Source of the DNA: an uncultured Acidobacteriota bacterium
Lineage (GTDB): Bacteria; Acidobacteriota; Terriglobia; Acidiferrales; UBA7541
Reading direction: 5' to 3'
Assembly: GCA_963842425.1 (NCBI GenBank)
Contig: CAWJGQ010000007.1
Span: 370,486-434,485 of the forward strand
Length of the DNA: 64,000 nucleotides
The translations under genes and the position numbers were made by a program. The stretch's first letter is position 1. Every line of letters starts with the position of its first letter. Of the stretch, positions 60,676 to 62,445 are shown in pieces. Below the pieces are notes generated by a model. That model was given only the letters and a program-made list of their open reading frames with translations, was not told where the DNA came from and searched no databases.

Positions 60676-62445
60676 TTACATCCACTTATCAATTGATGCG
60701 CTTCTGCCGTGGCGCATGTTCGCCACTTGGAAAAACGCATTGGCTTGGCCGCCGCAAACGACCAGGTTAATGTCCCGGGCACTGGGGAAAAACGGGATCA
60801 GCGTGTCCTCTGGAACCTTATACCACGTCGCGTAGGGCTCTCTTCCCTGCAGCGCCAGCGGATACAAGTGAAAGGGGGCCAGGAATGACTCCCGAAAATC
60901 CTTCGCCGTGCGCACTGTGTTCTTCCACAGCCAGTCAACGAGCTTTTCCTTCGTGTCGTAACCCTGGTCCACCAGACGCCTCGCCACCAGCGGGTCGAGA
61001 ATCACCAGCGCACCATCGCCGCCCACCATGGATTGAAACATGAAGCTGATCTGTTCGTCGAACATTGCAGGCTCGGCCGCCGCACCTCTCGCGCCATGGC
61101 CCTGCCGCACGTCCGGACCGCCGAAGATGCTGACCACGTTTTCCTCGGGTTTGAACCCAAGCTGCACGTGAAGTGGAGTCCACGGGCTGCTCTTCTCGTC
61201 CTCCGCAATCACGCAGTTGTTGTAGTCCAGTTGGTTGCCCTGCCCGCCTTGATAGGTGTCGCCCGGTATGCCGGCGTTGCTGAGATTCTTGCCCATCAGG
61301 GTCCACGTTCGCCCGATCGCGGCATTCGACTGCGCGAAGGGGCTAAGCGCGCCGAGTCCGTAATTCATGTTGAGCTTGTCGCGGATGGGGCCGTTGATCA
61401 CGAGCGCCGTGCTGGACGATGTCGTCGAACCGAAAAGCCCCAGTGAGCCCACGGACGCCATCGCAAGGACCACCGGAAAATATTCCGGGCGGCATCCAGC
61501 CATTACTGCGTTCACAGCGACCTGCCTAACCGTGTACGCCCACCGCGCGGACGTATAGCCCACACCTTGCTGCGCCGTCCTCAGCACTTCGTCTGGACTG
61601 TGGCTCGTGCCCTTCAGCATCGCTTCCACTTTTTCCGCCGTGGGAATGATGATCGGCATGTAATCCGTCATTCCGTTGTTCATGAAGATTTCTTGCAAGT
61701 TGTCCACGGTTTCCGGACCGTAAGTAGCCGGACCTGCGGGGATGGATTGCATGCCGGTCTTCTGTTCGTGTGCGGAAAGCGGCATGGTCAAGTCGTCAAC
61801 GATTTCCTTCATGATCTGTATCTGCGATACCGGGTCGGGATTTACGAGATACGCCGCGAGTTCCTTTTGTGTCTTGCCCCCCACAGGATGAGGAGTGAAC
61901 ACTTGACGCAGGTGCGGCATGCCTTCTCTAGCCGCGGTCAGGTTCGCCAATTCGGTATAGGCCTTGGTGCACATCGGTATTGCAGGGACGCCCATCTTTT
62001 CCATCGTTACGCAGTGACTCACGGTCGCTGGGGCGCAGCCTCCTCAATGCCCAATGGCCATGATGGTGGCGTATGCGTTCGCCTTGATCTCCGCCCAGAG
62101 CTTCGGGTCATCCTCGGCATAGACTCCGGCCTTCGTTCGGAAGACGGTCTTGACGCTGGGCATGTTCTGTTGAAACCACGCCTGCATATTTTTCAGCAGC
62201 GTCGCGCTTCCATCGAAGCTGGTGGCGTCAACCACGTAGATGGTTTTCCCGTCGAGGGAACTCGCTCGAGGGGCCATGGCAAATAGAGCCACGGCCGGCG
62301 GAGTGCCCTTGGGACTTACCGCCGTCAATTTCTGTTCGCCGCTGTCCGAGCCTTTTTTCTTCTGCTCCGCGTCGGCCCGAGAGCCGGCTAGAAGCGCCGG
62401 CGACATACCCAGCAGCGACAATAGCTTTCGTCTGTTAACTTTCAT
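60676..62445 (-). CDS. Candidate selenoprotein: two same-frame ORFs joined through TGA 62044-62046 (U-G-G-C motif). The alternative is two genes or a nonsense pseudogene.
   Basis: 62044..62445 (Tat-like signal MKVNRRKLLSLLG...) and 60676..62022 are in the same frame, separated only by TGA plus 7 sense codons. The read-through gives ...IMAIGH-U-GGCAPATVSHCVTMEKMGVPAIP... The second ORF has only a GTG start, 16 nt from the nearest SD-like sequence. Confidence 0.5.

Follow-up and report, generated by a model that had tools for sequence, protein, structure and literature searches.

UGSC-containing proteins are an accepted family of predicted selenoproteins (PMC2398784; PMC13188914). Since the Sargasso and Global Ocean Sampling (GOS) analyses, the family has been purely computational, with 255 sequences that contain selenocysteine (Sec or U) versus 21 that contain cysteine (PMC2398784). 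A 2026 review lists the family with the NCBIfam model NF041046 and describes the functions of nearly all computationally predicted selenoproteins of this sort as largely uncharacterised (PMC13188914). The Sec trait and selenoproteins are documented in the Acidobacteria (PMC1794560, Table 2). Here we describe a gene from a 64,000-nucleotide stretch of DNA (the window) from an uncultured Acidobacteriota bacterium (positions 370,486 to 434,485 of contig CAWJGQ010000007.1). This gene, at 62445..60676 on the minus strand of the window, very probably encodes a single protein in which an in-frame UGA is read as selenocysteine with the help of a hairpin of the selenocysteine insertion sequence (SECIS) type. 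The UGSC family has been known since 2005–2008, and the gene is a further member of it, not a new kind of system. What our analysis adds is the SECIS candidate, the misannotation of the gene's relatives, the expansion of Sec-containing paralogs, and a conserved gene module.

The minus strand reads ...ATG GCC ATT GGG CAT TGA GGA GGC TGC GCC CCA GCG ACC GTG AGT CAC TGC..., with the TGA at 62046..62044. One open reading frame (ORF), from 62445 to 62044, has an ATG start and 133 amino acids, and another, from 62022 to 60676, lies in the same frame. An earlier reading of the window, made from the sequence alone (the sequence-only reading), had proposed that these two minus-strand ORFs are joined in frame by one TGA, and both the sequence and its translation bear this out. 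Reading through the TGA gives 589 codons, ...AYATIMAIGH-U-GGC-APATVSHCVTMEKMG..., with APATVSHC following U-GGC at the junction. The features of the gene, all on the minus strand, are:

60676..62445, minus strand: predicted single selenoprotein gene of 589 codons (ATG at 62445, putative UGA-Sec at codon 134, TAA stop at 60678..60676), from the translation
62044..62046, minus strand: putative UGA selenocysteine codon (U134), which aligns with Cys in full-length homologs (184 TGA versus 19 TGC copies)
62035..62046, minus strand: putative U-G-G-C redox motif, from U134 to C137 (C137 is invariant)
62012..62030, minus strand: SECIS-type hairpin, with stem CAGCGAC / GUCACUG (6 pairs, with a C.A mismatch at the center) and loop C-G-U-G-A
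62368..62445, minus strand: twin-arginine-like signal peptide MKVNRRKLLSLLGMSPALLAGSRADA, with RR at 62428..62433 and A-D-A before the predicted cleavage site
61852..62319, minus strand: UGSC domain (PF24696), residues 43-198, with the TGA in its middle
60679..61848, minus strand: unnamed C-terminal domain of about 390 residues, with no Pfam or NCBIfam match and a pLDDT score (predicted local distance difference test) of 90.5

We compared the read-through protein to 5.8 billion proteins; our statements about annotation rest on the best 120 matches. Relatives at 72–92% identity are almost all annotated as fragments of 378–448 residues that cover the part after the TGA only. (Most of these calls are 432–448 amino acids long and some are 378–415; two other partial calls are shorter or longer.) At 51–64% identity, nearly all of the relatives are full length, with 572–615 amino acids. 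The full-length homologs (52–65% identity) are collinear with 95–100% of the read-through and have a cysteine exactly at the TGA column, in the motif MAIGH-C-[AGS]-[GT]-C-TPATV-x-HC. The alignment of homologs also shows a nearly invariant pair, H144-C145, downstream of C137. None of the best 120 matches is a full-length gene model with U. NCBI already describes some of the relatives, both fragments and full-length proteins (the long ones are P0003, P0104, and P0109), as "UGSC family (seleno)protein".

At the DNA level, we examined 160 loci: 80 from a scan of one genome per species and 80 from metagenomes. By their record titles, nearly all of the first 80 loci are from metagenome-assembled genomes (MAGs) of Acidobacteriota ("Candidatus Acidiferrales", Terriglobia); the few that are titled as other phyla may be binning errors. 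In these 80 loci, 94 gene copies have TGA as this codon and 3 have TGC. Across all 160 loci, it is TGA in 184 copies (138 unique 66-nt segments) and TGC in 19. So, together with the full-length homologs, the loci confirm that the aligned position holds Cys or Sec. The TGA copies have median open frames of 149 codons upstream and 451 codons downstream, and the TGA is kept across paralogs down to about 60% identity. Just before it, the histidine codon is CAT in 138/138 TGA genes, while the Cys genes have 14 CAT and 5 CAC.

Elsewhere in the window, TGA is an ordinary stop codon. Both of the neighboring genes end in TGA and have lengths that match their homologs, which excludes a genome-wide reassignment. 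Conservation of the TGA at one column, together with its use as an ordinary stop elsewhere, points to site-specific recoding and speaks against a reassigned code, an error in sequencing, or a pseudogene. A scan of TGA junctions in the window turned up no other selenoprotein candidates with a redox-motif context.

Sec-containing copies of the gene have also multiplied. We found tandem arrays of up to four UGSC-fusion paralogs with Sec, in which every paralog has a TGA of its own along with the same hairpin (four copies each in L055, L064, and L072; three each in L048, L077, and L078), and four MAGs carry five Sec copies each in the fetched loci alone. This expansion is lineage-specific and notable. 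It suggests that selenium matters more to the abundant Acidobacteria of peat and soil than their small reported selenoproteomes imply.

In bacterial SECIS elements, the loop lies 16–37 nt from the UGA and has a G among its first two bases. The sequence-only reading had seen no convincing SECIS hairpin by eye, but comparison across genes identified a conserved hairpin at 62030..62012. It spans 19 nt: the strand 62030..62024 pairs with 62018..62012, and the loop is at 62023..62019. The stem begins 13 nt past the UGA and the loop is 20 nt past it. The pairs are C2-G20, A3-U19, G4-C18, G6-C16, A7-U15, and C8-G14, with a C5.A17 mismatch. In the consensus loop, C-G-U-N-N, only the last two bases (the 3' half of the loop) vary freely. 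The gene thus has a hairpin just downstream of the UGA with a G in the apical loop, as expected for a selenoprotein gene, and the geometry fits what is described for bacterial SECIS elements. We infer that this hairpin, which lies within the coding sequence, recruits a complex of SelB and Sec-tRNA. (A lower stem that was seen in the fold of the window was considered as part of the SECIS and dropped, as it is not conserved in the paralogs.)

The hairpin signal emerged only from a comparative analysis of synonymous sites. The first 80 loci contain 94 unique TGA genes, in which codons +5, +6, +7, +9, +10, and +11 (CCA GCG ACC GTN xGT CAC TGC) show zero entropy at their third positions; flanking four-fold sites in those genes have 1–1.8 bits. 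When all 138 unique TGA genes are considered, the only departures from the consensus are in 3 sequences at +5 and in 1 at +11. The same synonymous sites vary by 0.5–1.7 bits in the 19 Cys genes. Counting both Watson-Crick and wobble pairing, the full set of six pairs is intact in 138/138 unique TGA genes and in 2/19 Cys genes (Fisher p = 7e-21). One intact gene (L112) has CCU...AGC, which is a compensatory change from A-U to U-A at the cost of a Cys-to-Ser substitution, and two other intact genes (L154 and L157) have G.U at the same pair.

The protein itself also resembles the UGSC family. With Cys in place of U, residues 43-198 match Pfam's UGSC family (PF24696) with E = 6.9e-29 and 101.6 bits, versus a gathering score of 25. 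The match covers profile positions 3-157 of 172 and runs across the TGA. The likeness to UGSC proteins that the sequence-only reading had noted is thereby borne out. The UxxC motif that it pointed to is present as well, as the Sec/Cys-x-x-Cys of the family's conserved turn, but the letters of the motif are U-G-G-C, not U-G-S-C. Paralogs have U-S-T-C, U-S-S-C, U-S-G-C, or U-A-G-C. In a predicted model of a full-length Cys homolog (pLDDT 76.6), the UGSC part is a beta-alpha-beta Rossmann-like domain, and the C/U-x-x-C lies at a strand-to-helix turn, at the start of the helix. This agrees with the earlier placement of the motif at a strand-to-helix transition, insofar as the predicted model of a homolog represents our protein. 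When we used Foldseek to compare the UGSC part of this model to PDB, we found only faint echoes of phosphotransferase system (PTS) IIB or sugar-binding half-domains (template modeling scores, or TM, of about 0.2).

Several results weigh against a selenoprotein. The hairpin is short and weak, with a folding energy of -4.5 kcal/mol on its own; the 101-nt segment, in its minimum free energy fold, shows no gain in stability over shuffled sequences (z = -0.56); and no SECIS or other family in Rfam matches the hairpin at E up to 10. The covariation support is small, with one compensatory change and a G.U variant in two genes, because the stem is almost invariant. Within the NCBIfam equivalog model for UGSC proteins (NF041046; profile length 147), the read-through protein matches positions 2-134 with 75.3 bits and does not reach the cutoff of 125 bits, so it is related to the short UGSC proteins that stand alone at the level of the domain and is not an equivalog. 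As for the machinery, ARAGORN did not find tRNA-Sec in the window or in the 80 loci; searching the window and about 1.2 Mb of flanks with approximate Escherichia coli SelA, SelB, and SelD queries (using tblastn) found no selA, selB, or selD; and NCBIfam identified no Sec machinery among ten unassigned ORFs of the window. These negatives are uninformative because only about ±8 kb around each gene was covered, and sel genes, if unlinked, would not be expected in the window or in the flanks.

We also considered that the UGA might be decoded without selenium, by a selC*-type tRNA-Cys or by an acidobacterial allo-tRNA with a UCA anticodon, which would place Cys or Ser at position 134. Besides the lack of Sec machinery in the window and flanks, this idea draws on Mukai et al. 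(PMC5389517), who described allo-tRNAs of Acidobacteria that are possible nonsense suppressors, as well as tRNA-Cys species that resemble tRNA-Sec and place Cys at UGA codons, some of them probably via a SelB paralog. The selC* genes, however, were reported from phyla other than Acidobacteria (PMC5389517). Furthermore, a conserved hairpin at the SECIS distance is the mark of position-specific recoding of the SelB type, not of general suppression, and UGSC is an established Sec/Cys family. Inserting Cys would give no reason for 184 copies to have TGA and the hairpin, since TGC works in 19. Decoding without selenium therefore seems very unlikely. It is more improbable still that the TGA is a true stop, so that the locus, whether it encodes a split protein or is decaying, would give an exported stub of 133 residues and a protein of ~440 residues that is re-initiated at GTG 62022 or ATG 62004. 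Every public gene call for the close relatives is split, into fragments of 432–448 amino acids, and the window has a GGAGG-like string after the TGA. But this string is a pair of glycine codons, and most paralogs have AGC ACC (Ser-Thr) instead. Similarly, GTG 62022 is a valine codon in the hairpin loop, which is GTC, GTT, or GTA in 118/184 copies and GTG in 66/184. Neither a restart codon nor a Shine-Dalgarno sequence is conserved, in keeping with the earlier view that the downstream ORF has no credible start of its own. A true stop would also cut the UGSC domain mid-way and take U out of U-x-x-C. The Cys homologs are contiguous, and both halves are open and in frame in 184 copies. And the downstream part by itself would have no signal for export, unlike its operon partners, whose N-termini are signal-like. 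We favor a single gene with selenocysteine at codon 134.

The upstream half of this putative selenoprotein carries the leader, with N-R-R-K-L-L-S, then LLGMSPALLAG, then A-D-A. The motif RR-x-hydrophobic-hydrophobic is found in 54/56 upstream halves of related loci, so the twin-arginine-like leader proposed from the sequence is conserved at the level of this motif. From the motif, we infer that the selenoprotein would be exported, folded, by the twin-arginine translocation (Tat) pathway. Most of the distant homologs lack any signal, and a few have signals of the general secretory type, which implies that export is a feature of this clade.

The C-terminal domain is more of a puzzle. It was not assigned to any family by Pfam or NCBIfam for the protein from the window, or by Pfam for the stand-alone forms, the 710-amino-acid forms, or 52 divergent members. 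A search with residues 200-589 among 1.84 billion representative proteins found 3,519 clusters at E ≤ 1e-3. By length, these include Sec-truncated fragments (~440 amino acids), full-length fusions (~560 amino acids), apparently stand-alone proteins (~350 amino acids, such as P0238, P0244, P0256, and P0267), and proteins of ~710 amino acids (such as P0164, P0165, and P0179), in which we recognized no Pfam domain. UGSC is also present in 33/52 of the divergent members. The AlphaFold model of the window's C-terminal domain is confident (pLDDT as listed above; predicted TM score, or pTM, of 0.88). Comparing this model to PDB with Foldseek gave no match (the best hit had E = 2.8e-3, TM 0.22, and a root-mean-square deviation of 16 Å), and a profile search of PDB sequences gave nothing usable on the domain's function. 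Class I fumarate hydratases and Toblerone-fold hydrolases gave only weak fold echoes, with TM of about 0.2. Among the conserved residues of the domain, Asp, Glu, Arg, Asn, Gly, and Pro predominate, and none is a Cys. In short, the domain is widespread and confidently modeled, yet has neither a family name nor a structural relative in PDB.

Downstream of the gene are two others that appear to form an operon with it:

59770..60645, minus strand: diheme c-type cytochrome whose N-terminus carries a hydrophobic, signal-like segment (Cytochrom_C domains, two, at E 2.1e-25; TIGR02603 heme-binding domain)
58166..59773, minus strand: homolog of eight-bladed propeller dehydrogenases of the pyrroloquinoline quinone (PQQ) type, PedH/XoxF-like (PF01011, E 5.9e-93)

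The Pfam domains confirm the neighbors that were named from the sequence, and the start of the dehydrogenase gene overlaps the stop of the cytochrome gene by 4 nt (ATGA). The selenoprotein gene and the cytochrome gene were said to be 30 nt apart, which is correct only if the cytochrome starts at TTG 60645. The likely start is ATG 60621 or GTG 60630, and with ATG 60621 the gap is 54 nt. We scanned the operon for promoters and terminators and found nothing beyond the expectation from shuffled sequences.

The dehydrogenase passes the cutoff of TIGR03075 (methanol/ethanol family; 528.9 bits versus 480). The model that it matches best is TIGR04528, "acido-empty-quinoprotein group A", at 546 bits (under the cutoff of 650 bits), and its closest solved structure is PedH (6zcv, E = 8.5e-100). 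It retains the D-x-D of the lanthanide type, in which the lanthanide Asp comes two residues after the catalytic Asp: its HDWDA aligns with WDFDG of PedH. The vicinal Cys-Cys next to the cofactor is absent, with GVHRSNRG where PedH has CCDVINRG.

This linkage is conserved. A propeller homolog lies beside the selenoprotein gene in 47/80 loci, and a cytochrome c homolog in 41/80, so the tight association that was noticed in the window is conserved. The linked partners are co-oriented in nearly all of these loci (the exceptions are three weaker, more divergent matches), in two gene orders. Clustering of 1,049 flanking ORFs showed no recurrent neighbors other than the cytochrome c and the propeller. 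About 38/49 linked propellers are of the D-x-D type without Cys-Cys; paralogous selenoprotein genes adjoin other propeller subtypes, some of which have Cys-Cys. The pairing of selenoprotein and propeller is thus general and does not go with loss of the disulfide in particular. The idea that the selenoprotein stands in for the dehydrogenase's missing Cys-Cys is weakened, as some paralogs adjoin propellers with Cys-Cys. The papers on acidobacterial XoxF and PQQ systems that we consulted mention no selenoprotein partner.

On the same strand, after the module, is an operon for the F1Fo ATP synthase (51907-58045; two b-type subunits, delta, alpha, gamma, beta, and epsilon). The b-type subunit was assigned by Pfam and the other subunits by eye. 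A sigma-70-like promoter match (58101-58073) precedes the ATP synthase operon. This adjacency is found in only 2/80 related loci, so the ATP synthase is not part of the module. Another ORF, at 2127-3134 on the minus strand, encodes a protein of the metallo-beta-lactamase fold with weak likeness to the "quinoprotein relay system zinc metallohydrolase" (TIGR04559; 68.5 bits, far under the cutoff). With 55 kb between them, this protein and the module are probably unrelated.

What might the selenoprotein do? We propose that UGA codon 134 would be read as selenocysteine via a SelB/Sec-tRNA complex that the hairpin recruits. The resulting protein would consist of a twin-arginine-type leader, a Rossmann-like UGSC domain with a selenol/thiol pair in U-x-x-C, and the domain of roughly 390 residues. 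Its gene would be co-transcribed with those for the signal-bearing diheme cytochrome c and the PedH/XoxF-like PQQ-type dehydrogenase. After export of the folded selenoprotein by Tat, it would alternate in the periplasm between a selenol/thiol form and a selenenylsulfide form, serving as a redox enzyme or relay, and this cycling would be coupled to the electron path from the dehydrogenase to cytochrome c. The C-terminal domain would supply a site for a substrate or a partner. We put forward this periplasmic redox-relay role tentatively, on the basis of sequence and gene context. It is weakened by three observations: NCBIfam's Tat-signal model does not match the leader; the tie between selenoprotein and dehydrogenase is one of gene linkage, not a biochemical link; and the partner propellers are heterogeneous, with Cys-Cys in only some of them.

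Alternatively, the protein could be a genuine selenoprotein with another role. It might help to mature or repair the propeller (its cofactor, metal, or thiol redox state) or might act as an enzyme on the dehydrogenase's product, without taking part in electron transfer. The best NCBIfam match of the partner is to the "acido-empty-quinoprotein group A" model, a family described for Acidobacteria without PQQ synthesis, and the main clade of partners lacks the vicinal Cys-Cys of PedH and MxaF. Also, the conserved Asp, Glu, Arg, and Asn of the C-terminal domain, without a cluster of Cys or His, would be more in line with a site for binding or hydrolysis than with redox chemistry, and the lack of signal peptides in most distant homologs implies that these act in the cytoplasm, away from such dehydrogenases. 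However, a U-x-x-C pair is typical of redox catalysis, and propellers with Cys-Cys are linked to paralogs too. No evidence separates such a role from the redox relay, and we consider it possible but rather unlikely.

More broadly, we speculate that in soil Acidobacteria the PQQ-type dehydrogenases, which are probably lanthanide-dependent, have the UGSC-fusion selenoproteins as their dedicated partners in the periplasm. The Se-S pair could act in trans as electrons pass from the propeller to cytochrome c, or the C-terminal domain could handle a cofactor, a metal, or the reaction product. This generalization is doubtful. If true, it would give the UGSC family its first physiological role (there has been none for about 20 years), and it would tie the use of selenium to lanthanide- and PQQ-based oxidation of carbon in soils.

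Whatever its role, UGSC is among the most abundant families of predicted selenoproteins in environmental data and has no known function, and the conserved module of three genes, which includes a PedH/XoxF-like dehydrogenase and a cytochrome c, is the first testable functional context for the family. The public annotation of close relatives as post-TGA fragments is a systematic error that affects hundreds of acidobacterial genes; correct gene models would require that the UGA be recoded. The nearly invariant 19-nt hairpin offers a simple means of searching this lineage for more selenoprotein genes.

A few other features of the window are worth recording. There are two copies of the Acido-Lenti-1 small RNA (Rfam RF01687), at 21204-21258 and 21384-21429 on the plus strand. 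They are 180 nt apart, exceed the gathering score (at 47.2 and 40.9 bits), and are consistent with an acidobacterial origin. A lone Cas1 homolog at 37902-39275 on the minus strand (TIGR00287, 105 bits) adjoins an ORF at 37312-37926 on the same strand that looks recombinase-like by eye. Tandem Repeats Finder identified no CRISPR-like array in the window, and the Cas1 may be an orphan or associated with a mobile element. There are also four probable IS110-type transposase genes, at 8932-9945, 10845-12098, and 12506-13570 on the minus strand and at 35685-36818 on the plus strand. The one at 10845-12098 is confirmed by NF033542 (238.9 bits), and the other three were assigned by eye. Identical stretches, the C-termini among them, occur in both the ORF at 8932-9945 and the one at 12506-13570, and the two have the appearance of a recent duplication.

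How does this gene compare to known systems? Like other members of the UGSC family ("UGSC-containing protein" of Zhang and Gladyshev, GOS 2008), it has the homologous domain with U/C-x-x-C at the same position, and in both sets Sec and Cys alternate and Sec predominates (by 255 to 21 in GOS and by 184 to 19 here). The family's motif is U-G-S-C, while our protein and its relatives have U-G-G-C or U-S-T-C. Also, the short form of the family (NF041046) stands alone and has 147 positions, while our protein adds an RR leader and the extra domain of roughly 390 residues. The GOS paper mentions a "UGSC/Unknown_1" fusion (PMC2398784), which may or may not be the fusion described here.

The hairpin resembles the SECIS of E. 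coli fdhF in that it lies within the coding sequence soon after the UGA, has G-U in the apical loop, and has a stem that is interrupted by an unpaired or mismatched position. The minimal fdhF element begins about 11 nt from the UGA, and the spacing of 13 nt here is similar. Unlike the fdhF element, the hairpin has a C.A mismatch in place of the bulged U; it is also shorter and weaker (-4.5 kcal/mol), and the two have no sequence similarity.

Selenoproteins with twin-arginine leaders have a precedent in FdnG and FdoG, the catalytic subunits of E. coli formate dehydrogenases N and O, which are exported to the periplasm. These are unrelated molybdopterin enzymes in which Sec ligates Mo, whereas the protein here would pair Sec with Cys in U-x-x-C. 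Finally, the two downstream genes resemble the pair formed by a lanthanide-dependent PQQ alcohol dehydrogenase (PedH or XoxF) and its dedicated c-type cytochrome (PedF or XoxG): the D-x-D lanthanide signature and the adjacent periplasmic cytochrome c are the same. The dehydrogenase here differs from PedH, MxaF, and XoxF in lacking the vicinal Cys-Cys and in scoring best against the "acido-empty-quinoprotein" model, and its cytochrome is diheme.

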